From NCBI GenBank assembly GCA_036509625.1, contig DATCFH010000206.1, forward strand, positions 1 through 36,805: a DNA stretch of 36,805 nucleotides, given 5' to 3'. Below the pieces are notes generated by a model that ran no database searches, had not been told where the DNA came from, and worked only from the letters and a program-made list of their open reading frames with translations. Of this stretch, positions 5,596-20,300 are shown one piece after another. This DNA is from Verrucomicrobiia bacterium. Lineage in GTDB: Bacteria > Verrucomicrobiota > Verrucomicrobiia > Limisphaerales > UBA11358. Within the stretch, counting starts at the first letter, position 1. Each line of letters begins with the position of its first letter. Position numbers and translations under genes: made by a program.

Positions 5596-5679
5596 GCGCA
5601 GACAGCGTAAGCCGGTCGCGCGATCAACGGTAGGAAAAACGGTGGCGAATGTCCGGCGGACAAACGCAAAAGAAAATTT

Positions 5680-6810
5680 TTAACGCGCGTTGACGGCGGC
5701 GGAAAACTTTTCCAGCGCATCGGCAAACTGTTTTGGATCGAAATCAGGAATGGACTGCGCAAGTTTGAATAATTGGTTGAGTGAGGCTTGCACCGGCTCG
5801 TTATTTTTCAATTCCGGTAATGCGGCAACCAAACGGTCGAGCGCGAGCACTAGACGCTCGGCGCGGCGGGCTTGGTATTCATTGGAAAAGTCTGTATCAC
5901 CTCCGAACCCAAGATGATTCTTGTCTAAAAGTTGGTTCAGACATTTGCGTGAAAGAGCGGAAGTCCATTCGATATTAGCAGCAGCGTGAGCAAGCTGGTC
6001 GGCCCATTTTTGATTGCTCGCATGAGTTCCCATTGAATCTCTAACATCGGCAGGCAAGCTGGCATCTGCTCCATCTATCTGTTTCAAAACCCAGACCAGG
6101 GCTAACCAACGATTCTCCTGATTTTCCGTCGGTGAAGTTTCCTTGGCAAGTTGCCAGCTCATTTCGCGCAACGCTACCGCCTGTCCGACGAGCCACGCCT
6201 GCGCGCCATTGCCGTTTTTGTCCGCGCTCCAATGTTTTGGTTCGGCGACGCTTTGGCCGTCGAGTTCAAAAATTAATTCAGGATGACCGGCTTTGAGAAT
6301 GTCGGCATCCACATTCTGATGACACGCAACGCAAGTGTTCGCGCGGACGTAAAGATTTTGCAGGTCGCGCATTCCCGTCGCCGTGCGGTCGGCGTGCGTA
6401 TAATCCGTCCGCGTGTGCGAACGAATCCAGTTCTCCGCCGGGCCGTGGCAGCTTTCGCACGAAACACCTTCGCTCACCTTGAAATCTTCGCCGCGCAGAT
6501 TTTCCGGCACGTCATGCAGCGGCGCATGGCAGGTCGTGCAGCGCGCGTCCGCCGTCGCATCTTTGATTTGCAGCGCATCGGCAATTTGTTTTGCGCGCGC
6601 CGTCGTGAGCGTTGCCGCTGGTCGTTGCGAATGAAAATCTTTGAGCGACCAGACGAGGAACTGGTTTTGATTCTGGCCGCCGCCGCCGTGGCAACTGGAA
6701 TCGGCGCAGGAATTCGCGCCAAGAAATTTTGGCGGCGTGTCCGCGCCGCGCGTTGCGACGACGGCCAGCAGCAATCCGGCAATGAGAGGGCGACAAATTG
6801 TTTTACTCAC
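5680..6810 (-). CDS. Secreted multiheme c-type cytochrome (3 CxxCH plus 1 Cx4CH) with a heme-free helical C-terminal half
   Basis: Heme motifs are CADSSCH, CTTCH, CESCH and CVACH. I prefer the GTG start at 6810 (VSKTICRPLIAGLLLAVVATRGADT), which gives a signal peptide. The longer ORF to 6942 is Arg-rich and overlaps the divergent gene. Confidence 0.8.
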   Translation of the reverse strand: MSKTICRPLIAGLLLAVVATRGADTPPKFLGANSCADSSCHGGGGQNQNQFLVWSLKDFHSQRPAATLTTARAKQIADALQIKDATADARCTTCHAPLHDVPENLRGEDFKVSEGVSCESCHGPAENWIRSHTRTDYTHADRTATGMRDLQNLYVRANTCVACHQNVDADILKAGHPELIFELDGQSVAEPKHWSADKNGNGAQAWLVGQAVALREMSWQLAKETSPTENQENRWLALVWVLKQIDGADASLPADVRDSMGTHASNQKWADQLAHAAANIEWTSALSRKCLNQLLDKNHLGFGGDTDFSNEYQARRAERLVLALDRLVAALPELKNNEPVQASLNQLFKLAQSIPDFDPKQFADALEKFSAAVNAR

Positions 6811-6839
6811 GGCGACAAATTGGTTAATGGAGTGGCAGC

Positions 6840-8147
6840 GTGAATGCAACCCTAATTGATTCCCTGCGCGTCGCCAGCGGAGGCAGTTTGAGCTTCGCCG
6901 CCGGCATTGCGCTGCTCGCCGGACTGCTCGCGTGGCTCGCATTGGAAATTTTCCGTTCGCTCCTCCGCGTTTTGGCCGAGAACCGGCAGCAGCACGTCGC
7001 GCTGGAAAAACTGCACGCCCAACTCGCCGAAACGAAACTTCGTTGCCGCGAGGCCGAATCGGCGCAAACCGGCTGGAACGGTTTGCGGAAATTTTCCGTC
7101 GTCAAAAAAAATCCCGAGTGCGAGGACGTGAACGCATTTTATTTGAAGCCGCACGACGGCCGTCCGCTGCCGCAGTTCAAGCCCGGCCAGTATCTCACAT
7201 TTCAACTCGATGTGCCCGGACGCGATAAACCTTTGATTCGTTGTTACTCGCTTTCCGACAGTCCGCATCAAAAAGAGTATTACCGCGTCACCATCAAAAA
7301 AGAAAAAGCGCCGCCGGACAAACCGGAATTGCCACACGGTGCTGGTTCCAGTTTTTTCACCGACGTGGTGAAAGAAGGCGACATCCTCAACGTCAAAGCG
7401 CCGACCGGCCATTTCTTTTTGGACATGACGAAAACGAACCCCGTCGTGTTGCTCGCGGGCGGCGTCGGCATCACACCGATGTTGAGCATGGCCAGCGCGA
7501 TTGCGGCGAGCGGCTCGAAACGCGAGGCGTATTTTTTCTTTGGCGTCCGCAATGTCCGCGAACACATCCATAAAGCCGAACTGGAAAAACTGGCGGCGGA
7601 AAATGACAACATCCATTTGCACATCGCTTACAGCAAACCCGGTGAGCGCGATGTGAAAGGAAAAGACTTTCATCACGAAGGCCGCGTGGGCATTGAGCTT
7701 TTGAAGGAAATTTTGCCGTCGAACAATTTTGAATACTACCTTTGCGGCAGCGGCGCATTCATGAAAAGTCTGACGGACGGCCTCGAAGCGTGGGGCGTGC
7801 CGGACAGCGTCGTCCACTTCGAGGCGTTTGGCCCGGCGACGGTGAAGAAAAAAACGACCGCGCCATCGCCAAGTGAAACGGTTCATCTCGCAAAAATAAA
7901 TGTGACCTTCGCGCGCTCGAACAAGACGGTGCGCTGGGATCCGGCGGCGGAAAATATTTTGGAATTTGCCAAGGCGCAAGGTGTGAAGATTGATTCCGGC
8001 TGTTGCGCGGGCAGTTGCGGTTCGTGCGTCGTCGCCATCAAATCCGGCGACGTGGATTATTTGAAGAAGCCCGACGCCACGCCCGAAGCCGGCAGTTGTT
8101 TCACCTGCGTTTGCCGACCGAAAAACGATTTGGTTTTGGATGCTTAA
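6840..8147 (+). CDS. Membrane-anchored FAD/NAD(P)H oxidoreductase with a C-terminal plant-type 2Fe-2S ferredoxin domain
   Basis: Domain order is an N-terminal TM helix (LSFAAGIALLAGLLAWLALEIF), a coiled segment, the FAD motif RCYSLS, the NAD(P) motif GGVGITPMLSM, YLCGSGAFM, and the 2Fe-2S motif C-x4-C-x2-C...C (CCAGSCGSC...CVC). The start is a GTG at 6840. Confidence 0.85.
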   Translation: MNATLIDSLRVASGGSLSFAAGIALLAGLLAWLALEIFRSLLRVLAENRQQHVALEKLHAQLAETKLRCREAESAQTGWNGLRKFSVVKKNPECEDVNAFYLKPHDGRPLPQFKPGQYLTFQLDVPGRDKPLIRCYSLSDSPHQKEYYRVTIKKEKAPPDKPELPHGAGSSFFTDVVKEGDILNVKAPTGHFFLDMTKTNPVVLLAGGVGITPMLSMASAIAASGSKREAYFFFGVRNVREHIHKAELEKLAAENDNIHLHIAYSKPGERDVKGKDFHHEGRVGIELLKEILPSNNFEYYLCGSGAFMKSLTDGLEAWGVPDSVVHFEAFGPATVKKKTTAPSPSETVHLAKINVTFARSNKTVRWDPAAENILEFAKAQGVKIDSGCCAGSCGSCVVAIKSGDVDYLKKPDATPEAGSCFTCVCRPKNDLVLDA

Positions 8148-8165
8148 AAAAATTCCGAACTAAAA

Positions 8166-9890
8166 ATGCCCGCCGCCCCGACCATTCTCGAACGCCCGCA
8201 ACGCTGGGACGCCGCGTTCGACGCGAACATGACCGACGCGGATGTGGAGCGGTTGCTGGCCACCGCGCCGTTCAGCGGGATGGATGCGGAGAAATTTCCC
8301 AAACGCACGCCGCTTCGCGAAATCATCCGCAACGACATGCGCATCCTGAAGTTTCGCAAGGGCGAAATCATCATGCGCCAGGGCGATTACGGCACGTCGG
8401 CGTTTTTGATTTTGCAAGGCGCAGCGCGCGTGGTGTTAAAACCTGATCTCGCACCGTCGCTGCTGGGACGTCAGGCCACGAATAAAAAAGGCGTCTTCCG
8501 CACGCTCGCGCAACTTTGGAATCGTTCGCGTCCGCCGGAAATGTTGCCGCGCACCCTGCTCGGACAAAGTTCCGGCGTCAGCGCACGGCAAAACGAAAAA
8601 GAGACGCGCGTTTTTTTGCAGGACGTGCCGCGCATTTTGGACCAGCACCGCACGGCGCAGATGACCGCCGGCGAATTTTTCGGCGAGATTGCCGCGTTGA
8701 GCCGCATGGCGCGCACGTCCACAATTTTTGCCGACAGCGACGACGCAGAACTTTTGGAAATCCGCTGGCAGGGTCTGCGCGACCTGATGAAATACGACGA
8801 CGCGCTGCGCGCGCACATCAACAGGATTTACCGCGAACGCGCGCTGGCTTCGTATCTTCGCGCCACGCCGCTCTTCAAAAATCTGTCAGAAGAACAGCTT
8901 GGTCGCGTGGCCGAGGCCGTGGAATTTTCGACTTACGGCGACTACGACTGGTCGGGCGAATACAAACGCCTCGCGCAATCCGGCAGCGTGCGCCCGGAGA
9001 AAGAGCCTGTCATTGTTGGCGAAGGTGATTATCCAAACGGCATCGTGCTGTTGCGCGCCGGCTTCGCGCGCGTGAGCCAGAAATTCGGCGGCGGCGAACG
9101 CACGTTGAATTACATCGGCGCGGGACAGATTTTCGGCCTCAACGAAATCGCCCACAACTGGCGCAATAAAGATGCGGCGGTGAATTTTCAATTCTCGCTG
9201 CGCGCCATCGGCTACACGCATTTGCTCGTCGTGCCAACGCGCGTGATGGAAGAAATTGTTTTGCCGTCGCTGCCGAAAAACGAACTGCCGCCGCTCGTCG
9301 CGAAGCATGAAGACGAGTTTGATTCCGCACCACCCGAAGTTGCCACGCGCGAAAAAGTCGGCGCAGAGATTTTGGAATTTCTCACCGAGAACCGTTTTTT
9401 TAACGGCACGGCTTCGATGGTGATTGACCTCGACCGTTGCACGCGCTGCGACGATTGCGTGCGCGCCTGCGCCTCGACGCACGACAATAATCCGCGCTTT
9501 CTGCGCCACGGGCCGAGCGCCGGGCGGCTCATGATTGCCAATGCCTGTATGCACTGCGCCGATCCGGTTTGCATGATCGGCTGTCCGACTGGCGCGATTC
9601 ACCGCGAGTCTTTTGCCGGACAGGTTGTTATCAATCCCACGACGTGCATCGGCTGCAAATCCTGTTTCACGAACTGTCCTTACGACGCCATCCGCATGGT
9701 CGAGGCGCGCGACGAACGCGGTGAATTTCTCATGGATCAGGAAATGAAACCCATCACGAAGGCGACCAAATGTGACCTCTGCGTGGAAAACCACGGCGGC
9801 CCCGCCTGCGAACGCGCGTGCCCGCACGGCGCGCTCACGCGGATGAATTTGAACAATCTGGATTCGCTTTCGAAGTGGTTAAAGTTATGA
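8166..9890 (+). CDS. Tandem cyclic-nucleotide-binding domains fused to a DmsB/NrfC-type ferredoxin module with four [4Fe-4S] motifs
   Basis: There are two cNMP-binding-like domains. The first carries GEFFGEIAALSRMARTSTIFA and the second carries GQIFGLNEIA. The four Cys clusters are CTRCDDCVRAC, CMHCADPVCMIGCP, CIGCKSCFTNCP and CDLCVENHGGPACERACP. Confidence 0.85.
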   Translation: MPAAPTILERPQRWDAAFDANMTDADVERLLATAPFSGMDAEKFPKRTPLREIIRNDMRILKFRKGEIIMRQGDYGTSAFLILQGAARVVLKPDLAPSLLGRQATNKKGVFRTLAQLWNRSRPPEMLPRTLLGQSSGVSARQNEKETRVFLQDVPRILDQHRTAQMTAGEFFGEIAALSRMARTSTIFADSDDAELLEIRWQGLRDLMKYDDALRAHINRIYRERALASYLRATPLFKNLSEEQLGRVAEAVEFSTYGDYDWSGEYKRLAQSGSVRPEKEPVIVGEGDYPNGIVLLRAGFARVSQKFGGGERTLNYIGAGQIFGLNEIAHNWRNKDAAVNFQFSLRAIGYTHLLVVPTRVMEEIVLPSLPKNELPPLVAKHEDEFDSAPPEVATREKVGAEILEFLTENRFFNGTASMVIDLDRCTRCDDCVRACASTHDNNPRFLRHGPSAGRLMIANACMHCADPVCMIGCPTGAIHRESFAGQVVINPTTCIGCKSCFTNCPYDAIRMVEARDERGEFLMDQEMKPITKATKCDLCVENHGGPACERACPHGALTRMNLNNLDSLSKWLKL

Positions 9891-10702
9891 AACGCTTTCG
9901 CCGACAACTTGCTTTTGGTTTGTTCGCGCTGATTGCCGCAACGGTGGGCGCGTTGTGGTTGAATGGAAAATCCAACACGCTGCCGAACTACGCCTATCTC
10001 ACCGGCTGGGCGCTGCTCGCGGGGATGTTCGTGTTGACAATCTACAACGTGCGGAAAAAACTGCCGTTCCTGCCGCTCGGCAAATCCGAGACGTGGTTGC
10101 AAATCCACATCTATCTCGGCTTTTTCACGACGCTGCTGTTTCTCATCCACCTGAATTTCCGCGCGCCGCACGGCTGGTTTGAGGTCGTGCTGGCTTGGCT
10201 ATTCGTGCTGGTCAGCGGCAGTGGCATGGTCGGATTATTTTTCAGCCGCGTGCTGCCACGTCGGCTGGCGACGCGCGGCGGCGAGGTCATTTTTGAAAAA
10301 ATTCCCGCTTTACGCCACGCGTTAAAAACCGAGGTGGAAAAACTTTCGCTCGGCGCGGATGCAAAATCTTTGGTCATCGCGGAATTTTACACGAAGCGGC
10401 TAGCGCCGTTTTTCTCCGGCCCAAAAAATTTCTGGAACCATCTGGCTGAATCGCGTCGCGAAGTCAGCGCGCTGCTCGCGGAACTCGAAGACCTGCGCCG
10501 TTTCGCCAACGACATGGAAAAAGAAAAAATCGAACGACTTGGCGCGCTCGTCCGCCAAAAAGACGGGCTGGATTATCACCGCGCGTTGCAACTCGCGTTG
10601 CGATTGTGGTTGTTTGTCCACATTCCGCTGACTTACGGGCTGTTAATTTTCACCGCGCTGCACATCATTTTGGTCTTCGGATTTTCGGGAGGTGCGCGAT
10701 GA
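9887..10702 (+). CDS. Integral membrane protein with two H-x13-H helices; putative di-heme cytochrome b-type subunit
   Basis: The ATG at 9887 forms an ATGA overlap with the upstream stop. I predict about 5 TM helices. Helix 3 (IHIYLGFFTTLLFLIHL) and the last helix (VHIPLTYGLLIFTALHI) each carry two His residues 14 positions apart. A helical loop of about 100 aa separates TM4 from TM5. Confidence 0.65.
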   Translation: MKRFRRQLAFGLFALIAATVGALWLNGKSNTLPNYAYLTGWALLAGMFVLTIYNVRKKLPFLPLGKSETWLQIHIYLGFFTTLLFLIHLNFRAPHGWFEVVLAWLFVLVSGSGMVGLFFSRVLPRRLATRGGEVIFEKIPALRHALKTEVEKLSLGADAKSLVIAEFYTKRLAPFFSGPKNFWNHLAESRREVSALLAELEDLRRFANDMEKEKIERLGALVRQKDGLDYHRALQLALRLWLFVHIPLTYGLLIFTALHIILVFGFSGGAR

Positions 10703-12270
10703 GCGAGCAACTGCCAGCACCGGATTTCGACGCCCAAAATTATGCGCGGCCAAATCAAAACTGGATTTGCGGTCATGCGTGCGAAGGCAATGCGTGTCGG
10801 CCCGGTCCGGATCAAAAAGGAAATTGCTGCGCGACGGCGGAATGCAAACCAGTTCTCAAAATCAAACCAGGTGAAACGAAAGGCCGCTGGGTTTGCACGC
10901 GCACTGGCGGAGAATGTGAATCTGGTCCGTTGCCGGACGGAAGCTGCTGCAATCCTATTCCAAAATGTTCGCCCGTGCCGACGCTACGCGTGTGGCGCGG
11001 GCGCGTAACGCTCGCGGTCATCGCCGCAGCGTGCGCGGTGTTGCTGGTCGTGCTCGGCAATCCGCCGTGGCGGAATAATTTCATCAGCCCCGGAATAGTT
11101 TCTAGTCCGCATTCCGGCGCGGCGTTCGCGGCACTGGCGTTGACGAATCGTCTGAATCAAAGTTGTGGTGCGTGCCACGTTGCGGGAAATTCCGGGCCGA
11201 ATGAAATGGTGAGTGTTGCGTTGCACGCGGAGCCGGGAATTTTGGATTTGAAAAAACTCGTGTTCGCCAAAGCGGCCGGGCCGACGGCGATTGACGAGGC
11301 GTGTTTGAAATGTCACGCGGGCAAAAATGTTCATCAGCCGGATGCGCCGCAAATTTCCTGCTCGTTCTGCCATGTAGAGCATCAGGGAATAAAAATCGCG
11401 GCGACGATGGATGCTAACTGCAATTTTTGCCACGGCAATGCGGCGAAAATGCCGGCGGCCATTGGCGGAAAACCGTTTGCGCTCGTCCACCATTTTGCGG
11501 ACGACCATCCGCAGTTTCGTTTTCTCACGGAAAAATTACGCGACCCGGATACTTTGAAATTCAATCACGCGCTGCATCTGACGGGCACGACGATTCCGAA
11601 TTTGCCGGGTGGCTCAAAGTTGGATTGTGTGTTTTGTCATTCGCCGGATGCGGCGGGCGCGTTTATGAAGCCGGTGGCGTTTGAGAAAAATTGCCGCGTG
11701 TGTCACTCGCTGCAATTTGATCCGGCGACGCCGGAACTGCAATTGCCGCACGGCAGCGCGGAATTTGTGTCGGCGTATCTGCGGAGTCTGCCAAAGCAGT
11801 ATTTGGATTTGGCGGCGAAGCAAAATGTCGCGGACGGAAATAATTTTGTTCAGCAGAAGCTGGCGGATTTGCGGACGCAATTTGGCAGCGGTGAGGATTT
11901 GGAAAAACGCATTTTCTTCAGCACGGCGACGACTGCGCCGGAAATAAATGTGGGGAATGTGAGCGGCGTAACGCGCGCGATTTTTCCCGGCTGCGCGTAT
12001 TGTCACGAAGTAAAATCAATTGGCGGCTTGCCGGAAATCACGAAGCCAATTCAAACGGAACACTGGCTGGTGCAGGCGAAATTTAATCACGCGGCGCACG
12101 CGAACATTGCCTGCACGCAGTGCCATGACGCGGTTCACAGCAAGGATACGGCGGATATTTTGTTGCCGCCGAAGGAAACGTGCGTGACGTGTCACAGTCC
12201 GCGCGGCGGCGTGGCGGACACTTGCGCGGAGTGTCATACTTACCATAAGCTGCCGGTCGCGGCGCAGTGA
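10699..12270 (+). CDS. Membrane-anchored decaheme c-type cytochrome with a Cys-rich N-terminal domain
   Basis: The ATG at 10699 forms an ATGA overlap with the upstream stop. The ten CxxCH motifs are CGACH, CLKCH, CSFCH, CNFCH, CVFCH, CRVCH, CAYCH, CTQCH, CVTCH and CAECH. One TM helix (VTLAVIAAACAVLLVVL) is preceded by RVWRGR. The roughly 95-aa N-terminal region has 11 Cys. Confidence 0.85.
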   Translation: MSEQLPAPDFDAQNYARPNQNWICGHACEGNACRPGPDQKGNCCATAECKPVLKIKPGETKGRWVCTRTGGECESGPLPDGSCCNPIPKCSPVPTLRVWRGRVTLAVIAAACAVLLVVLGNPPWRNNFISPGIVSSPHSGAAFAALALTNRLNQSCGACHVAGNSGPNEMVSVALHAEPGILDLKKLVFAKAAGPTAIDEACLKCHAGKNVHQPDAPQISCSFCHVEHQGIKIAATMDANCNFCHGNAAKMPAAIGGKPFALVHHFADDHPQFRFLTEKLRDPDTLKFNHALHLTGTTIPNLPGGSKLDCVFCHSPDAAGAFMKPVAFEKNCRVCHSLQFDPATPELQLPHGSAEFVSAYLRSLPKQYLDLAAKQNVADGNNFVQQKLADLRTQFGSGEDLEKRIFFSTATTAPEINVGNVSGVTRAIFPGCAYCHEVKSIGGLPEITKPIQTEHWLVQAKFNHAAHANIACTQCHDAVHSKDTADILLPPKETCVTCHSPRGGVADTCAECHTYHKLPVAAQ

Positions 12271-12279
12271 TTATTTATT

Positions 12280-13308
12280 TCAGAAACGGACGGTGAGATT
12301 CAATCCACCACCGGCGTTGAGCGTATCGCTGTTCTGCACATAGAAACCGTCGGTCTTCAAAATGTCGTAGCTGACGTAGCCGCGCAGGGTGACGTAGTCG
12401 TTGAGTGGAATATAAAGCGCGAGGCCGAAGGAGTTCAAATAATCATCGCGCCAAGTGGTGGTGAAATGAGTTTGTTGAAAACGGTAGGACGGCTGCAAAA
12501 TCACATGACTGCACAAACGCCAACTGCCGGCGACGACGAGGCTGTTATCCATGCGGTTGTTAAAATTGCTGCCGTTCAGCGGCGGATTGTTCGCGGTGTC
12601 GGTCAGGCGAGCATCGCCTTCGTATCCAATGGAAATGGCGGTTTTATCACTCGTAAAGAGATCGCGGCGGATCGCCCAGTTCGGGACGTATTCGTTATAA
12701 AATTGGTCGGTGTTTTGATCGTCGTTGAGCTGGCGATAAAAACCGCCAGCGGTGAAAGTCCAATTTTGTTTGCTCCATGACACGTCGCTGAAAATGGTCA
12801 TGGCGTTGAAATCAAATTGGTCGAGATTGGCGCGGCTGAAGGTATGGGTGTTGAGATTGTAAGCATCCACCGTTTGCGGACCGCTCAAACCGTAGTTGAA
12901 CCATTGCTGCTGGAAGCCGAGGCGAGGCGCGAGTTTTCCGTCGGCAAAATCATACGCGGTCGGCGCGAGCGCAGCTTGCACGGTGCTGACGAGAACATCA
13001 GCGCCTTGTTTCTTCTGATTCGCGAGGAACATATTATCCGTATAAAAATACTGCGCGTCGGCAAACGCCTCGATGTAGGTGCGGCGCGTTTTGGTTTGAA
13101 GGACGGATTGCGGGCCGACATCGCTGGATTCACCGGCGTAAAGTTCCGGCACGGCGTTCGTGGCAATCATCATTTGCGCGGCCTGATCAAGCTGGTGGCG
13201 TTGCTGGACGGAATCCACCTGCTGACTGGCGTTCGGCATTTGCGCGAAGGCGGTCACGCTCGCGACCAACCCAATTGCGCCCGTGAGAAAATATTTTTTT
13301 AGGCTCAT
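12280..13308 (-). CDS. Outer-membrane beta-barrel protein (porin-like)
   Basis: Signal peptide MSLKKYFLTGAIGLVASVTAFAQ, starting at the ATG at 13308. Alternating amphipathic strands rich in Tyr, Gly, Asn and Asp, with the terminal sequence GGGLNLTVRF ending in Phe. Confidence 0.65.
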   Translation of the reverse strand: MSLKKYFLTGAIGLVASVTAFAQMPNASQQVDSVQQRHQLDQAAQMMIATNAVPELYAGESSDVGPQSVLQTKTRRTYIEAFADAQYFYTDNMFLANQKKQGADVLVSTVQAALAPTAYDFADGKLAPRLGFQQQWFNYGLSGPQTVDAYNLNTHTFSRANLDQFDFNAMTIFSDVSWSKQNWTFTAGGFYRQLNDDQNTDQFYNEYVPNWAIRRDLFTSDKTAISIGYEGDARLTDTANNPPLNGSNFNNRMDNSLVVAGSWRLCSHVILQPSYRFQQTHFTTTWRDDYLNSFGLALYIPLNDYVTLRGYVSYDILKTDGFYVQNSDTLNAGGGLNLTVRF

Positions 13309-13318
13309 AAAATAAAAA

Positions 13319-14194
13319 TTATCCACGGAATCCAATCGTGGTGGTGGGGCGGCCGCCGGGTCCGACGTTGCTAGGCGGTGGACCTGATTTGCTTTGATTC
13401 AGCGAATTGAACTGCCGGTTATTCAACGGCGGGTGCGCCGCCGTGTCGTAGGTGGCGGGGTCGAGCACGTTCTGGCCATTGCCGGGCGGCGATGGCGGCA
13501 GGAAAAATTCCGGCGGCTGGCCGGTATCGGACGACGCGCCGGATTTAATCTGGAAATCCTGATCTTGAATCGCCAGCAGAATCAGCGGCAACGAAGACAG
13601 GTCATGCGAAAAGCCTTTGACCAATTGCGAGCCGGCGACGAGCTTGTCCAAGTTGATGCTGAAAACCTTGCTGAATTCCGTTCCGCCCGGCAGCACGAAA
13701 ACTTCCTGGCCGGCTTTGAGCGTTACGGAATTTCCATTTGGCAAAGTAACTTTGCCTTTACCTTCCAGCAAAATTACTTTGAACCCGCCGCCGGTCGTGG
13801 CTGACATAATCAACGTCGTGCCGAGCACCGCCGCCGCCGCGCCGCCGGATTTGATTGTGCCGCCGCCGAGACCTTTCGGCGCGTGAAAGAGCACGTTGCC
13901 CTGTTCCAAATTCAAAGTGCGTCCGCTGTCCGCATAGGAAAAAACCGTGTTCGCGCCGACGCGTGTAATTGTCTTATCCGGCGCGGTGAGTTCCGCGCGC
14001 GACTGCGGGCCGGTGCGGACGCGCTGCGGCGCTTTCAAAATATCGCCCGACTTGGCCGTCGTGGCATCGCCAGTGGCAGACACCGTGTTCACGTCATTGA
14101 TGATTTCCGTGAACGTGCTTTCCGTCAACGGCGCGGCGTAAAGCGGCAACGCCAGTCCGGCGAGCGCGAACAGTAGCAAATATTTCGTCTTCAT
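13319..14194 (-). CDS. Secreted FecR-domain protein (paralog 2) with a Pro-rich C-terminal tail
   Basis: Signal peptide MKTKYLLLFALAGLALPLYA, with the ATG at 14194. The FecR-like core is RVRTGPQSRAELTAPDKTITRVGANTVF...LEQGNVLFH...GGAAAAVLGTT...VTLKAGQEVFV. By eye it is roughly half identical to the upstream paralog. Confidence 0.8.
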   Translation of the reverse strand: MKTKYLLLFALAGLALPLYAAPLTESTFTEIINDVNTVSATGDATTAKSGDILKAPQRVRTGPQSRAELTAPDKTITRVGANTVFSYADSGRTLNLEQGNVLFHAPKGLGGGTIKSGGAAAAVLGTTLIMSATTGGGFKVILLEGKGKVTLPNGNSVTLKAGQEVFVLPGGTEFSKVFSINLDKLVAGSQLVKGFSHDLSSLPLILLAIQDQDFQIKSGASSDTGQPPEFFLPPSPPGNGQNVLDPATYDTAAHPPLNNRQFNSLNQSKSGPPPSNVGPGGRPTTTIGFRG

Positions 14195-14229
14195 ATTATT
14201 GAAATTTCTAGGGGAAATGTTTGGGCTTG

Positions 14230-15072
14230 TCAATTGCCGACGTCGCTGTGAAAACCACCATACCAAGGCTGATTGGGAAAAGTTTGCGTCGGGGAAACAT
14301 AAACCTGCGTGCGGTCGGGCGCATTCACCATCCACGGCGGAAGCCGTCGGACAGGCATGATGTCCAGCCCCAGACTGGCCGTCAGAAACGACACGAGGTT
14401 CGGCAACGTGCCAGCGAGAATCTGGTCGTTTTGCAATTGGATTGCGGTGGTGATGAACGGCAGCGACGACAACGGATTTGAAAAGCCCGTGACCAACAAC
14501 AGGCGGGAAACAAGTTGCTCCAGATTAAAAACCATTATGGCGCTGAACTCATTTCCATCCGGCGACACAATCACCATCTGCCCGGCCTCCAGCAAAATGT
14601 GCGTATTATTTTTCAACGTCACCTGCACATGCCCTTCGAGATCGAGAATTTTGAAACGGCCGTCCGGCAGCACCGCGCAAACCATCGTCGTTCCCAGCAC
14701 CGCCGCCGCCGTGCCGCGATACCGAACCGTTCCGCCGCCAACGCCAGCCGGCGGATGAAACAACACGCTGCCCTTTTCCAATAGAATATTTCTTCCGCCC
14801 GGCTCAAAAGTAAAAACCGTGTTCGCGCCGACGCGCGTAATGGTTTGATCCGGCGCGGTCATTTCCACGCGCGACGCCGGGCCGGTGCGAACCAAATCCG
14901 GCACTTTGAAAACCGTGTTCGTCACGGCGGGCGTCACGGATTTATTGGCGGCGGCGAGCACATCTGCCGTGCGGATAATTTCCGTGAAAGTGCTTTCTGT
15001 CAGCGGGGTCACTGCCAGCGCCGATACGCGGGTGCAAACGGCCAAGCCGGCCAGAAGAGAAAAAGTTTTCAT
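14230..15072 (-). CDS. Secreted FecR-domain protein (paralog 1)
   Basis: Signal peptide MKTFSLLAGLAVCTRVSALA. The FecR-like core is LVRTGPASRVEMTAPDQTITRVGANTVF...LEKGSVLFH...GTAAAVLGTT...ILLEAGQMVIV. Confidence 0.8.
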   Translation of the reverse strand: MKTFSLLAGLAVCTRVSALAVTPLTESTFTEIIRTADVLAAANKSVTPAVTNTVFKVPDLVRTGPASRVEMTAPDQTITRVGANTVFTFEPGGRNILLEKGSVLFHPPAGVGGGTVRYRGTAAAVLGTTMVCAVLPDGRFKILDLEGHVQVTLKNNTHILLEAGQMVIVSPDGNEFSAIMVFNLEQLVSRLLLVTGFSNPLSSLPFITTAIQLQNDQILAGTLPNLVSFLTASLGLDIMPVRRLPPWMVNAPDRTQVYVSPTQTFPNQPWYGGFHSDVGN

Positions 15073-15138
15073 GTTTGCACCGCCGTGGGATTACAAGACT
15101 AACTTAACACCTGTATTAAATTGTCAAGGTTGCGCCCG

Positions 15139-17262
15139 ATGAATAACCTGCGGCAGCATTACGTTTTCACCCAAAACCAAACGATGAAACCCGCCGCCCG
15201 CCGCACCGCCATCGTCCTCGCCATCTGCGCGGTCTGCACGCTGGTATTTTTGTTTTTGTGGCAGCGCGGGTTTGTGCCGTTGCAGGAAATGGAGTTTTCC
15301 GCGCAGGACTGGCAGGCTCGGCTCGGCCGCAAAACGCCAATGGATGACCGCCTCGTCCTCATCGGCATTGACAAGCCGGTTTATGCCGCCGACTTCAGCG
15401 ACGAAGAAATTCAGCGCGAACCCGTCCTGAAAAATTTGCAAAATACTTTTCCGTGGTCGCGCGCCGTCTGGGCGCGGCTCATCGAAAAACTTTCGGACGC
15501 GGGCGCAAAAGTAATTTTATTCGACTTGGTTTTCGCCTCGCAAAACGATGGCGACGACGCCCTCCGCGCCGCGCTCGAAAAGTATAAAGACCGCGTTGTC
15601 ATTGGCTATAACATCAGCGCCAAAAAAACCGGGCGCGGCGATTTCATGGAGCTGGAATTCCCCAATTCGTCCGTCGTGCAGACGAGCGAAACCAATTCGC
15701 CGGTGGCCGACGACCGGCTCGGTTACGTCAACATCTGGCCGGATTTCGACGGCATTTTGCGGCGCGCGCGCTATCGCCAGACCGGCGCACAAATCGACGA
15801 CATTCTGCCCGCCGAAACTATTCTCGAATCCATGGACGCCCGCGCGCTCCGCAAATTTGGCCGCGCTGATCTCATTCCCAGCGGCTTTGGCGAACAACTG
15901 TTTCGCTACACCGCGCGTCCCGGCGACGGCTACAAACCGATTCCCATTGGCGACGTGCTTTCGCCCGAGCTGTGGGAAAAGACCTATCACAACGGAAAAG
16001 ATTTTGCGGGCAAAATAATTCTCGTTGGCCCGACGGCGGAAATTTTTCAAGACGTTCACGACACGCCGTTCGATCCGAAAGCGATGGCCGGCCCGGAAAT
16101 TCATCTGCAAATTATCAACGCCGCCTTGCACGGCGAACTGCTCCGCGAACTGCCGCCGTTCGCCGCGAGTTTGTTCATTGCGCTCGCCGGATTTATTGCC
16201 GCCGGCTTTTGCCAGTTCATCCGCGCGCCGTTCAAGCGGCTGCTCCTGATTTTTCTTTTGGGCGGCGCATTTTTTCTCGCTTCCATCATTTGTTACAACC
16301 ACGCCAACCTCGTTTTGCCCGTGATGCCGCCGCTGCTCGTGCTGATGCTCATCGGCCTCGCAACCTTCGTTTACGATTTTGTCGTCGAGCGGTTGGAGCG
16401 CATGAAGTTGAAGCACACGATGGGACTATATTTTTCGCCGCGCGTGCTCGAAGCCGTGCTGGCCGATCCCGGCTCAATGGAACCGCGCCGCGCCAACGTC
16501 GTTTTGCTGTTGACCGATTTGCGTAATTCCACGCCGCTCGCCGAGGCGCTCGGTCCGAAAGGAATGTTCGATCTGCTCAATCAAGTTTTTGAAGCGCAAA
16601 CGAGCGCCATCATGGGCGAAGAAGGCAACCTCGAACATTTTCTCGGCGACCAGTTTTTAAGTTACTGGGGCGCGCCGCAAAAACAGGCGGACGCCGCCGA
16701 CCGCGCCAGCCGCGCCGCGCTGAAACTTATTTCCGCCATGGAAAATCTGCGCGCCACGCTCACGCCGGAAGTGCAAAAATTATTTGGTTACGGCGTCGCG
16801 CTGCACAGCGGCGGCGTGTTGGTGGGCAATAAAGGTTCCGCGTTGCGACTCGATTACGGCCTCGTCGGCGACACGGTGAACGAGGCCGCGCGCGTTGAGG
16901 CGCTTACGAAATACTACGGCGCGCGCCTGCTCGTGACGCGCGACGCGTTCGCGCAATTCAGCGCGCAGGGACAGCATCGCCTGATTGACCGCGTCATCGT
17001 GAAAGGCAAAAGCGAGCCGGTGGAATTGTTCGAGTGCGAAAATCCCTGCACGCCGCCGAACTTCGCGGAGATTTGCGCGCGCTACAAAAAAGCTTTCGAC
17101 GAATATCACTTTGGCCGTTTCGTCGAGGCGCAGCTAATGTTTGCCGCCATCGGCAAGGAATTTTCCGACGGACCGAGCAAAACCTTGTCCGCCCGCTGCG
17201 CCACGCTCGTCATTCATCCGCCGGAAAACTGGAACGGCATCTGGAAAATGGATGCAAAATAA
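15139..17262 (+). CDS. CHASE2 sensor domain / class III adenylate-guanylate cyclase
   Basis: An N-terminal TM helix is followed by a periplasmic region of about 300 aa (LVLIGIDKP..., ILFDLVF, GYVNIWPDFDGILRR, ILVGPTAE), about 3 TM helices and a class III cyclase domain (VVLLLTDLRNST, FLGDQFLSYWGAP, GLVGDTVNEAARVE). The start is uncertain: ATG at 15139, ATG at 15184 (MKPAARR), or TTG at 15121. Confidence 0.85.
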   Translation: MNNLRQHYVFTQNQTMKPAARRTAIVLAICAVCTLVFLFLWQRGFVPLQEMEFSAQDWQARLGRKTPMDDRLVLIGIDKPVYAADFSDEEIQREPVLKNLQNTFPWSRAVWARLIEKLSDAGAKVILFDLVFASQNDGDDALRAALEKYKDRVVIGYNISAKKTGRGDFMELEFPNSSVVQTSETNSPVADDRLGYVNIWPDFDGILRRARYRQTGAQIDDILPAETILESMDARALRKFGRADLIPSGFGEQLFRYTARPGDGYKPIPIGDVLSPELWEKTYHNGKDFAGKIILVGPTAEIFQDVHDTPFDPKAMAGPEIHLQIINAALHGELLRELPPFAASLFIALAGFIAAGFCQFIRAPFKRLLLIFLLGGAFFLASIICYNHANLVLPVMPPLLVLMLIGLATFVYDFVVERLERMKLKHTMGLYFSPRVLEAVLADPGSMEPRRANVVLLLTDLRNSTPLAEALGPKGMFDLLNQVFEAQTSAIMGEEGNLEHFLGDQFLSYWGAPQKQADAADRASRAALKLISAMENLRATLTPEVQKLFGYGVALHSGGVLVGNKGSALRLDYGLVGDTVNEAARVEALTKYYGARLLVTRDAFAQFSAQGQHRLIDRVIVKGKSEPVELFECENPCTPPNFAEICARYKKAFDEYHFGRFVEAQLMFAAIGKEFSDGPSKTLSARCATLVIHPPENWNGIWKMDAK

Positions 17263-17384
17263 TCAAAGCGGTTCCTTCCTTGCGACTGCAAAAAAAAGTT
17301 GCCAAAGGCATTTCCGCCAGCAAACTTGGTGCAAAGGATTCGGTCTGGCGGATGGTCTGACGGACTGAAATAATCTCATTTGCC

Positions 17385-20300
17385 ATGCATAGCCAGTTGC
17401 CTGCCCATCTCATCGCGCACATCAACGTCAAACTCGCCCTCATCGGCTGCTCGCCCGTGCCGCTCGAAGGCGACAAGGAATTCGTCGAGATCGCCGCCGC
17501 GATGGCCGCGCAATCGCGCGAAAAAGACCGGCTGCTCGGCCAGCATCTTTGTCCCGCCGACGCGCGCATCCAGACTTTTCTCTACGATTATTTGCAGGAC
17601 ATTCCCGCGCCGAAATTGCCCGCGCGCACGTTCACGCTCGACCGCGCGGGTCTCGCGCGGGTGCTTTCGCTGCCGGTTGACCGCAATGATTTTTCATCCG
17701 ACATCATCAATTCCTACCGCGTCAAACAAGGCGTTTTACACAATCCGAAAAGCGACCGCCGCACGACCGCCGGAATTTTTCACGTCTGCGAAGGCGGTTT
17801 GCCGATTCCCGACGACAAGCTCGGCGTGCCGAAAGCTACGTTCGCAAAAATCGTCCAGCACGCGCTCACGCCGCCACGCGAACTGCTGAAATTGCCGTTC
17901 ACTTCCACGCAGCCGCAGCCGGCGGAATGTTTCGTCACGCTGTTGATCCGCCCGCTCGTGTGTCCCGAAGTTCCCGGCTTCACCAAAAAGAAAACGATGG
18001 AAGTCCGCTTCTTCGTGCCGGGCAATCTCGTGAGCAATTTGGATTTCGTCGAAGCCATTTTTGAAAACGGCGGCGACCCGTTGCTGCCGGAAAATGACGC
18101 CGCACTCGACACGGAACATTGGAGCGGCCACACCGGCTGCATCATTCTTGCGCCGCATTTGACGAAGCTCACGAAAAAATCCGTCGGTTTGCCGGATTGG
18201 GATTCCGCCACGGAACGCCAGCGGCGCGACGGGATGTGCTGGAAAAAAGAAGACGAACTTTACAACGGCGGCAACGCTTTCAAGCTGACCTGCCGTGACG
18301 AAACGGGCGTCATTGTTACGATTATCGCCGACAATTATTTCGGCTATTGCAAAAAAGAAGTGAAGACGCAGTTGAGTTACGCCGCCAATTTGTTCGGTCT
18401 CGCCGAAGAAGAACACGCGGGCGGCGCGCTCGTTTTTCAGAGCTACGATCTCGGCGAGGAATTCAGCGGCGATGTCCACGTCCGTCGGCTCGGCCATCGT
18501 TTTGAGGAAGTGGCCGCCCTATTCGCCGGCGCGCTAGAGGTGAAGCCGGAAGGCTACGCGGTGGACAAAAAATTTCCGGAGATTCTCTACATTCCGCACG
18601 ACGCGCATTTTGATTTGAAGTCGCAAAAAGTTTCGTGGACGAATGCGACGGGCGATCACGCCATCAAACTTTCGCCGGAAAAAACTTACGTCCGCCCGTC
18701 CGGCTACAAGGTCAAAATGGAAAAACCGCCGGGCGCGGGACGTCAATGGCGGCTCGTCGGCACGGTCGCCGAAGGAACTTTCTGCCACAAGCCCTGCACG
18801 GTTTCCGGCGGCGGCAAATCGGAAATTTCAAAACCGATCACGGACGCAATTTTGACCGGCCCGGTTTTTGTTTCGGATTTGAAAAACGATTTTGACCGCG
18901 TCGAAGAATTGATTGACCGCGATTACTCAAATCGTTTTGCCGACCAGGCGCACACCGACGCGCGCACCGTGCTTTCGCCCGAACGCTCGCTTGGCTCCGT
19001 CATCAAACTGCTCACGCCGGACGAACACGATTACACGCCGAATTACAATACCTGGCTCGCGTCGTTGCCGCAGCACGTCAAGGAACTCGCCTTCGTCGTG
19101 AAGCGCTATTACAAGCCGGAATGGGGCGCGGACTGGCGCGCGCATTTCAGCGTGGACATCATCAACGGCATACCCGGCAACGAACTCAAGTGCGACAACC
19201 GCAAGCTCGTCACGACTTATTTGCGCGTCGGTTTCGACGGCGACGGCGCGTGGCGCACGTTTGGTTTGCGCAAGGATTTTTATCCCGCCGTCAAAGTGCA
19301 GATGGAAGACGATATCACCGCGTCCACCGTTGTGCCACCGGGTTTGCTGGAAGATTTGCCCGCCAACATTGATGAAAACTGCTCGCTTAAGTTTGCCCAG
19401 AACTGTGAACAGCGTTTATTCCAGCGCCCCGACGACGCGATTCATCGCGGCTACGACAAGCAGGCGGAACTGGATTTCGTGCAGCCGGAAAATTTCTTTT
19501 CCAATTACGAACCGCTCACGCCGAAAAATGCGCGCGACATGGTGGAGGACGCGCTGGGCTTCCACGAGTTCACCGAGCCGATGCAAAGGTTCGTGGGCGA
19601 AGTCGCGGCGACGGGCGCGCCGGATTATTTTGTCTGCACCGCGAATCCGCGCATCGTGGACGGCAAGCCGACGAAAAATCCACGCTACTTGCAAAAGCGT
19701 CCCGACCTCGTGCGCGCGAGCGAAACGTATCTGGCGGAAATTTCCGCGCGCCTGCGCCGCCGCGTGCCGCCGGAAAAACCGTTATACACACCGGTCACCG
19801 CCGTGTTGCCGGGACGCCGCAACAATCCGCCGGAAACCGGCATCCGCGCGCTGGCGTGCTACAACCCGATTCATTTCATGGAATTGCCGGAATTGTTCAT
19901 GGAAGTGATTTGCAGCATGACCGGCAAATCGCCTTCGACCACCGGCGCGGGTTCGGAAGGCGCGCTGACGAAAGGGCCGTTCAACGCGCTGCCGCCGATC
20001 ATTGACCTGAACAACGCGCTCGTGTCATTTATTCTTACGGGACAAAACGCGTTTGTGACCGCCGCCGGTTACGTCGGGCCAAATCTGCGTGTGGATCACG
20101 ATGTCAGTTTGATTGTGCCGGAAATCTGGTGTCGCCTGACCGCCGAGGAACGCAATCCGAAATTTCTCATCGCGAACCATTTTCTCGACAAGTGCGCGGA
20201 CTTTGAGCACGACGGTAAAAAAGTTTTGGCGAGCCGGCTCGGCTGGCGCATCAACGCGCGCTTCGTCCACAATTTTTTTGGCCGTATGTTCAACCATCCG

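Follow-up and report, generated by a model that had tools for sequence, protein, structure and literature searches.

A conserved gene module of FecR proteins, an outer-membrane barrel and a CHASE2 cyclase in Verrucomicrobiia, most likely a split form of NsrA-type input

CHASE2 is among the commonest extracellular sensor domains of bacteria, and to our knowledge neither a ligand nor an activation mechanism has been established for it; the one genetic handle on it that we know of is NsrA, in a single rhizobium. Here we describe a four-gene locus encoding two secreted FecR-domain proteins (FecR1 and FecR2), an outer-membrane beta-barrel and a CHASE2 class III nucleotide cyclase, on the 36,805-nt contig DATCFH010000206.1 (assembly GCA_036509625.1) of a Verrucomicrobiia bacterium. 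This whole stretch is hereafter the window, and all coordinates without a locus prefix refer to it. The FecR, barrel and CHASE2-cyclase genes constitute a real, conserved module and, by analogy of architecture, the locus is most likely a split, small-barrel version, lacking tetratricopeptide repeats (TPR), of the NsrA-type input to CHASE2 cyclases.

In Sinorhizobium (S.) meliloti, signal perception by the CHASE2 cyclases CyaK and CyaD1/D2 is reported to require NsrA, an outer-membrane protein (PMC7529298, PMC13001267) whose barrel portion spans residues 600-1200 (PMC7529298). A cluster in Campylobacterota contains a CHASE2 adenylate cyclase, a phosphodiesterase, a FecR protein of the outer membrane, along with a TPR protein (PMC9239204). 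The Burkholderia BiofilmReg operon and P. aeruginosa PA4035/PA4036 encode a LysM-FecR protein beside a CHASE2 histidine kinase (PMC5192318). We also found TPR / FecR / CHASE2-cyclase operons on a plasmid of Paracoccus and one of Shinella, both with cNMP-binding (cyclic nucleotide-binding) genes nearby. The original prediction for this DNA, made from the sequence alone, held that CHASE2 genes recurrently neighbour FecR-like genes and that the signalling logic is not understood. The recurrence is borne out by these alphaproteobacterial plasmids, by the published clusters (PMC5192318, PMC9239204), by both CHASE2 cyclases of the genome and by most loci of the survey below. The second statement is outdated in light of the reported requirement for NsrA (PMC7529298, PMC13001267).

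The FecR1, FecR2 and barrel genes follow one another on the minus strand with spacers of exactly 35 nt and 10 nt, as originally described, and the cyclase gene reads divergently on the plus strand (Table 1). The close spacing and the conserved gene order suggest that FecR1, FecR2 and the barrel gene are co-transcribed. The 111-nt divergent region presumably holds both promoters, and a block within it, TTAACACnTGTATTAAATTGTCAAGGTTGC, is kept in the three closest loci.

We surveyed 151 genomes of the same order, found the barrel in 25 of them and read 19 of the loci. A FecR gene lies directly upstream of the barrel gene in all 19, with stop and start codons that overlap in many, and the pairing is present in more distant genomes of the class too; the FecR-barrel pair is an obligate unit. 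A CHASE2 cyclase gene is adjacent in 13 of 18 assessable loci, mostly in divergent orientation and sometimes co-directional or convergent. Locus L033 was omitted from this count, its contig ending just past the FecR gene. The window genome's second CHASE2 cyclase, on another contig, is directly preceded by a FecR gene as well, and among 20 CHASE2 genes from barrel-free genomes at least six have FecR upstream.

This second FecR/CHASE2-cyclase pair (L003:4247-6199, minus strand, contig C11) follows a gene whose 650-aa product combines an O-antigen-ligase domain with TPR, a neighbour that echoes the TPR partners seen in other phyla. In another genome, G050 (L044:8586-14422), two tandem FecR-barrel pairs lie downstream of one CHASE2 cyclase, which is a different route to a duplicated input part.

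Both FecR proteins exceed the curated Pfam cut-off for FecR (PF04773). They are 52-53% identical across about 200-225 aa, in agreement with the earlier estimate by eye of about one half. By hydropathy, the N-terminal signal peptide is the only hydrophobic segment in either protein, and the mature proteins start with the conserved sequence PLTESTFTEI. The start of FecR2 (MKTKYLLLF, at 14194) was set by its signal peptide, MKTKYLLLFALAGLALPLYA; the longest open reading frame (ORF) begins further upstream. In the AlphaFold2 (AF2) model of FecR2, the predicted local distance difference test score (pLDDT) exceeds 90 over residues 25-220, comprising a beta domain (25-170) followed by helices, and residues 228-291 form a disordered Pro/Gly-rich tail. 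The beta domain superposes on the periplasmic domains of the FecR-type regulators 4M0N and PupR (6OVK) with a root mean square deviation of 2.5-3.0 Å (Foldseek E-values 5e-7 to 8e-5), so the periplasmic FecR-domain fold is present. The 6OVK entry is a complex, in which we take PupR to be bound to the signalling domain of its outer-membrane transducer. An N-terminal core of about 225 residues is common to the FecR proteins across loci. Their C-terminal tails vary, for total lengths of 250-1048 aa; no known domain was recognised in these tails.

A tree of the FecR cores separates the two paralogs. FecR1 falls in a well-supported, fast-evolving paralog clade (support 100/99, stem length 0.43), which adjoins the cyclase in all four loci that carry it. 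The single FecR of relatives is closer to FecR2 than to FecR1 in nearly all loci, and that of the closest lineages is the FecR2 orthologue. In one of the four loci, L056, the module is split: the FecR2-type and barrel genes stand on one side of the neighbouring ptd redox operon and the FecR1-type and cyclase genes on the opposite side. Because each pair stays together when the module splits, this single rearrangement suggests that FecR1 partners the cyclase and FecR2 the barrel.

The barrel gene starts at 13308 (MSLKKYFL), and its product ends in LNLTVRF, with a C-terminal Phe. The protein comprises a signal peptide (residues 1-22), a helix (27-45), a motif at 53-70 (PELYAGESSDVGPQSVL) and the barrel (79-342). 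An AF2 model built with 48 homologues (pLDDT 75) predicts residues 79-342 as all-beta with 12-14 strands, and a Foldseek search of the Protein Data Bank (PDB) with this model returned outer-membrane barrels only, namely autotransporter beta-domains, OmpG, CymA and porins. This supports the barrel assignment originally made. Query TM-scores did not exceed 0.48, and the model therefore fits no specific known family. We found no Pfam match and no PDB sequence match for the protein, and none of 120 listed homologues bears a functional name or a Pfam domain.

A profile search among 1.84 billion representative proteins retrieved 378 clusters of this family at 50% identity, of which the best 150 are free-standing proteins of at most 405 aa. 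Matches among 401 sampled genomes of the phylum were confined to the window's own class. Few parts of the family are as well conserved as the 53-70 motif (consensus aPELYxGExxDVGPQSvL), which holds up in members of only about 30% overall identity and is predicted to be disordered, with no model confidence there. Since it is strongly conserved yet predicted disordered, we read it as a partner-binding peptide that likely folds on its partner at a point of contact. We also considered a type Va autotransporter, given that autotransporter beta-domains are the best fold matches, and rejected it: there is no fused N-terminal passenger, and the protein is 342 aa long with its own signal peptide, in keeping with the lengths of the best 150 family representatives.

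Comparison with orthologues places the start of the cyclase at 15184 (MKPAARR). By hydropathy, a transmembrane segment (residues 3-33) is followed by the periplasmic CHASE2 domain, a transmembrane cluster (322-404) and the cytoplasmic cyclase domain. Aligned to OaPAC and to the Cya2-derived chain Cya2-E488K (6FHT), the protein retains both metal-binding Asp residues, the transition-state Asn and Arg and the KGK motif; its LTDLR, FLGD and TVNEAAR segments align with OaPAC and Cya2 and are conserved among orthologues. With this catalytic core intact, the cyclase is, judging from its residues, probably active. All the features that the original prediction named for FecR1, FecR2, the barrel and the cyclase are in the sequence, and its description was thus correct in every checkable detail.

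The positions that specify the substrate are unusual. His (in LEHFLGD) replaces Lys and Gly (in DYGLVGD) replaces Asp or Thr, so the cyclase carries His/Gly where a canonical class III adenylate cyclase has Lys plus Asp/Thr. Cya2 of Synechocystis is a CHASE2-regulated guanylate cyclase that a single Glu-to-Lys change (E488K) switches from GTP to ATP (PMC5995499; PDB 2W01). The cyclase described here shares with it the combination of CHASE2 and a class III cyclase domain, as well as Gly at the second specificity position as in the 6FHT chain. It differs at the first, the E488K switch position, where Cya2 has Glu and this cyclase and its subclade have His; the Cya2-type guanylate cyclase pair is therefore also absent. 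LEHFLGD, DYGLVGD and DLRNST (in place of D(V/I)RGFT) are invariant in this subclade of module cyclases down to 45% identity, and the remaining module cyclases, as well as the genome's second one, have the canonical Lys/Thr. Because His and Gly occupy the nucleotide-selecting positions, the product is not predictable from sequence. In the literature searched, we found no description of specialised FecR paralogs, of the barrel family and its N-terminal motif, or of the His/Gly cyclase subclade.

To compare the module with NsrA, we searched the pSymB DNA around its single CHASE2 gene. A 1219-aa ORF abuts cyaK and contains a FecR domain (residues 85-179, E = 2e-15), TPR (about 400-606) and then a C-terminal half, the counterpart of the NsrA barrel portion described in PMC7529298. 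In that half, NsrA-like relatives from Verrucomicrobiota match the TonB-dependent-receptor barrel model. FecR2 is 33% identical to this FecR domain over 94 aa (E = 4e-8). The Verrucomicrobiia locus thus resembles NsrA-CyaK in encoding a barrel component and a FecR domain, the latter homologous between the two, beside a CHASE2 class III cyclase; in S. meliloti, the outer-membrane protein is described as acting upstream of the cyclase. The locus departs from the presumed NsrA, a single FecR+TPR+barrel protein, in several ways. FecR and barrel are separate polypeptides, each bearing a signal peptide. TPR are absent, the barrel is a small one of 12-14 predicted strands, and the FecR gene is duplicated. 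Unlike CyaK, the cyclase has His/Gly instead of the adenine-specifying pair. No single NsrA-homologous FecR+TPR+barrel polypeptide is encoded at the locus.

Fused proteins of the NsrA type do occur in the window's order. Proteins of about 1200 aa are encoded directly upstream of CHASE2 cyclases at L118:2268-5867, L123:2100-5678, L120:7180-10854 (minus strand) and L119:7280-11023 (minus strand). Those at L118, L123 and L120 combine Pfam FecR, TPR and a TonB-dependent-receptor-like barrel, and the one at L119 was detected with a custom FecR profile only. About 500 residues of the L118 protein can be aligned with the pSymB ORF. Proteins resembling NsrA thus occur outside rhizobia as well and, as these fusions adjoin CHASE2 cyclases in the same order, the fused and split forms share a position.

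The wider set of systems has the same outline. The Campylobacterota and Paracoccus/Shinella clusters likewise place a FecR protein and an envelope component beside a CHASE2 cyclase; however, both carry TPR proteins and the former also a phosphodiesterase, neither of which is found at this locus, their FecR proteins are 655-849 aa long with other C-terminal domains, and the barrel family is absent there. An hhalign comparison of the barrel family with the Shinella FecR protein gave nothing specific. BiofilmReg and PA4035/PA4036 share a secreted FecR protein encoded beside a CHASE2 sensor, but differ in their histidine kinase and response regulator output, in a FecR protein with LysM and in having no barrel gene. 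In FecA-FecR-FecI and PupB-PupR, a FecR domain links the periplasmic N-terminal extension of a barrel to inner-membrane signalling, as we propose below for the module. The locus described here, in contrast, has no anti-sigma domain, membrane anchor, extracytoplasmic function (ECF) sigma factor or TonB-dependent 22-strand transducer, and has a nucleotide cyclase as its output. The combination of an outer-membrane part with a FecR domain and a CHASE2 sensor is a recurring design.

We propose, with moderate confidence, that the four genes form a trans-envelope sensory module that feeds the CHASE2 cyclase in the manner of a split NsrA. The outer-membrane barrel would sense or admit an envelope or external cue, and its conserved periplasmic N-terminal segment would hand the signal to the soluble periplasmic FecR proteins. 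These would act on the periplasmic CHASE2 domain and set the cyclic-nucleotide output of the cyclase. FecR2 on the barrel side and FecR1 on the cyclase side, duplicated in this lineage, would probably relay the signal. We infer both the physical contacts between these parts and the flow of signal from barrel to cyclase. The module would function like NsrA-CyaK of S. meliloti, with FecR and barrel as separate polypeptides. The proposal draws on the constant FecR-barrel pairing and its frequent cyclase neighbour, the FecR gene before the genome's second CHASE2 cyclase, the presumed NsrA ORF on pSymB, the fusions within the order, the fit of FecR2 to PupR, the conserved barrel motif, the split in L056 and the intact catalytic residues.

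Several points weigh against this proposal. Five of the 18 assessable FecR-barrel pairs have no adjacent cyclase, and at these loci the pair may serve other partners or act alone. L054 has one FecR gene only, and FecR1 would therefore be dispensable in some lineages. The pSymB ORF is assigned to NsrA by its size and position. In an hhalign comparison of the barrel family with this ORF, the probability was below 1%, meaning that the barrels are not detectably homologous, and for this reason the analogy to NsrA rests on architecture. Lastly, signal perception in S. meliloti does not depend on SMc02177, another FecR-domain protein, which is instead a target of cAMP-Clr (PMC5498481). By this precedent, a FecR protein near a cyclase can be an output and not an input.

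The module abuts a redox operon of the ptd type, whose second gene encodes a PtdE-like ferredoxin with cNMP-binding and 4Fe-4S domains, as originally described. The stop codon of the barrel gene faces that of a plus-strand multihaem (decahaem) cytochrome gene, and the 9-nt gap (TTATTTATT) reported earlier between the convergent stops is correct. A scan for promoters and terminators did not rise above background, with 14 terminator-like sites where 12.2 were expected and none of them within the 9-nt gap. From this adjacency, the original prediction drew a complete circuit, in which the cyclic nucleotide of the module is a dedicated signal for the neighbouring PtdE and an envelope cue gates the ptd electron conduit. 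This reading would add to the NsrA-like sensory module and not replace it. The FecR/barrel/cyclase part of the circuit stood up as a conserved module; the link to the redox operon is weak.

Full-length PtdE is present in 34 of the 151 genomes, 14 of which have the barrel too and 20 of which do not; a further 11 have the barrel only. The co-occurrence is enriched (PtdE in 14/25 barrel genomes and 20/126 barrel-free ones; odds ratio 6.7, uncorrected for relatedness), yet the two blocks are adjacent in only 4 of the 14 genomes with both (G000, G054, G071 and G133, the last seen across a contig break). In the remaining ten they lie on different contigs or 84 kb apart, and 32 of 36 ptd loci have no module alongside. 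The absence of linkage in related genomes, named at the outset as what would speak against the circuit, thus holds for ten genomes and fails for four, which belong to one PtdE subclade. The circuit claim is weak given these unlinked blocks, the 11 barrel genomes without PtdE and the 20 PtdE genomes without the barrel. The ptd and FecR-barrel operons, being convergent, are also not co-transcribed.

The four adjacent genomes are, at 70-75% identity, among the window's closest PtdE relatives, and the barrel is missing from G072, the other close relative. Adjacency is seen in four further, metagenome lineages (L052/53, L054, L055 and L056), on contigs that carry closer barrel relatives. It persists even where the barrels are down to about 33-50% identity, with 6-110 nt between the convergent stops and small gaps of about 6-27 nt in L052, L054, L055 and L056. 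In L050, a close relative whose barrel is 73% identical, the module is not adjacent to ptd. Adjacency is a general property of neither block and is confined to one PtdE subclade. We read it as a single juxtaposition, specific to this lineage and passed on by inheritance since then, perhaps with some selective benefit, which fits the fact that the adjacent cases all fall among the closest PtdE relatives (at least 70% identity).

PtdE and the barrel are both wholly absent from two same-genus genomes, which are 96-97% complete. Both genomes lack window positions 5600-17390 (11.8 kb), a segment comprising a divergent cytochrome gene, the ptd operon, the FecR-barrel operon and the cyclase gene, and both keep genes from either flank at 72-84% nucleotide identity. 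This looks like the gain or loss of one 11.8-kb block; in G076 the flanks are on different contigs.

CHASE2 proteins were found in 133 of the 151 genomes, with up to nine matches each. PF00027 searches of ten module-carrying genomes returned 4-15 cNMP-domain matches per genome, none of them on the module's contig except PtdE in G071 (adjacent) and G114 (84 kb away). With CHASE2 and cNMP domains so common, the pairing of a cyclase with an effector is unreadable from presence alone. A general rule that module cyclases adjoin cNMP effectors was rejected, as none of the ten further genomes has an additional cNMP-binding gene near the module.

Local coupling in the window's own lineage is possible, because the first cNMP domain of PtdE has a canonical phosphate-binding cassette (FGEIAAL...RTS, residues 172-185). 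The conserved adjacency in the four genomes and the metagenome lineages, the joint absence of both blocks from the two same-genus genomes, the enriched co-occurrence and the presence of cNMP-binding genes near other loci of the same cyclase subclade (L050 and L056) all favour the complete circuit. Against it stand the unlinked majority of loci, the barrel genomes without PtdE, the empty neighbourhoods of the ten further modules, the restriction to the closest PtdE relatives, the counterexample of L050 and the sheer abundance of both domains. On balance we regard the complete circuit as doubtful. A more specific version, in which the His/Gly subclade would make a non-cAMP nucleotide that binds PtdE directly, such that the cue sensed by barrel and FecR switches the electron conduit at the protein level, is improbable on present evidence. 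If true, it would amount to a second-messenger-gated respiratory wire with its own outer-membrane sensor. The neighbouring PtdE makes nucleotide-gated electron transfer directly testable in one lineage.

Several of these loci carry other features. L050:3787-4380 is a stand-alone gene for a 197-aa cNMP-binding protein, about 1.7 kb from the cyclase gene, and its product may be an alternative local effector. At L056:9102-20871 the ptd operon looks decayed, with PtdE split into 335 and 224 aa and the FNR-like gene truncated to 188 aa, and an ATP-binding cassette (ABC) transporter with a cNMP-binding domain follows the cyclase. In G054, a 227-aa ORF between the decahaem and barrel genes (L033:5648-6331, minus strand) has the motif YCLMPDHMHAVW, which we take to be typical of transposases of the tyrosine type associated with repetitive extragenic palindromic (REP) sequences.

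Alternatively, the FecR-FecR-barrel operon could lie on the output side of cyclic-nucleotide signalling, as an envelope function that the product of the cyclase turns on. The SMc02177 precedent is of this kind, and divergent genes that share a 111-nt control region would suit co-regulation. However, NsrA, the only genetically tested outer-membrane partner of CHASE2 cyclases, acts upstream (PMC7529298), and the pSymB ORF assigned to it carries a FecR domain. Periplasmic domains of the FecR type are known to relay signals, and no transcription factor with a cNMP domain is encoded in the window. We therefore consider an output role unlikely and retain the sensory module as our preferred reading.

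A third alternative assigns the barrel to the neighbouring operon as the porin of a ptd porin-cytochrome conduit, a PtdB counterpart that stands beside FecR by chance. A porin, PtdB, does belong to the ptd cluster in its first description, a preprint that does not mention cyclases (bioRxiv 10.1101/2023.11.21.568154). The barrel gene does abut the decahaem cytochrome gene, but its distribution led us to reject this assignment. It is not co-inherited with the cytochrome operon, in view of the PtdE genomes that lack any such barrel, the ptd loci without one alongside and the barrel genomes that lack PtdE, and it always follows a FecR gene. A barrel of 12-14 strands is also far smaller than the known cytochrome-sheathing porins. 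We consider a conduit porin hardly credible. Classical FecR anti-sigma signalling to an ECF sigma factor, to which the Pfam FecR matches and the fold match to the PupR and BDI_1681 periplasmic domains might point, is rejected as having next to no likelihood, since both FecR proteins have a cleavable signal peptide and neither a cytoplasmic anti-sigma domain nor a membrane anchor, the conserved neighbour is a cyclase, and no sigma-70 r2/r4 or TonB-receptor domain was detected in the scanned window ORFs of at least 150 aa.

As an input to a CHASE2 cyclase, the split FecR and barrel would be a minimal form, far easier to dissect than a 1200-aa fusion: a folded FecR region of about 200 residues, a barrel of 260 residues and a short peptide that is conserved. 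Two groups are also defined by the locus, namely an outer-membrane protein family that lacks annotation and a subclade of cyclases whose specificity pair, His/Gly, is unusual.

Table 1. Positions of the module genes and adjoining features in the window
Feature	Position	Strand	Description
FecR1	14230..15072	-	Secreted, 280 aa, cyclase-side paralog; Pfam FecR E 7e-6, signal peptide
FecR2	13319..14194	-	Secreted, 291 aa, barrel-side paralog; Pfam FecR E 2.5e-10
Outer-membrane beta-barrel (predicted)	12280..13308	-	342 aa, unannotated family
CHASE2 class III nucleotide cyclase	15184..17262	+	692 aa; Pfam CHASE2 E 1e-40, Guanylate_cyc E 3e-11
Divergent intergenic region	15073..15183		111 nt, between the FecR1 and cyclase starts
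9-nt gap TTATTTATT	12271..12279		Separates the convergent stops of the barrel and decahaem cytochrome genes
PtdE-like ferredoxin	8166..9890	+	Candidate local effector only; Pfam cNMP_binding E 1e-22, plus 4Fe-4S

Elsewhere in the window, a short repeat rich in hairpins (GCGCCGTAGGCGCGACAT / CCCCGTCGGGGCGACAT) occupies positions 1513-1700; nothing in Rfam matches it, and it is not a tRNA. Several matches on both strands of the same-genus genomes were found, and the repeat is probably a REP-like element or one resembling a miniature inverted-repeat transposable element (MITE).

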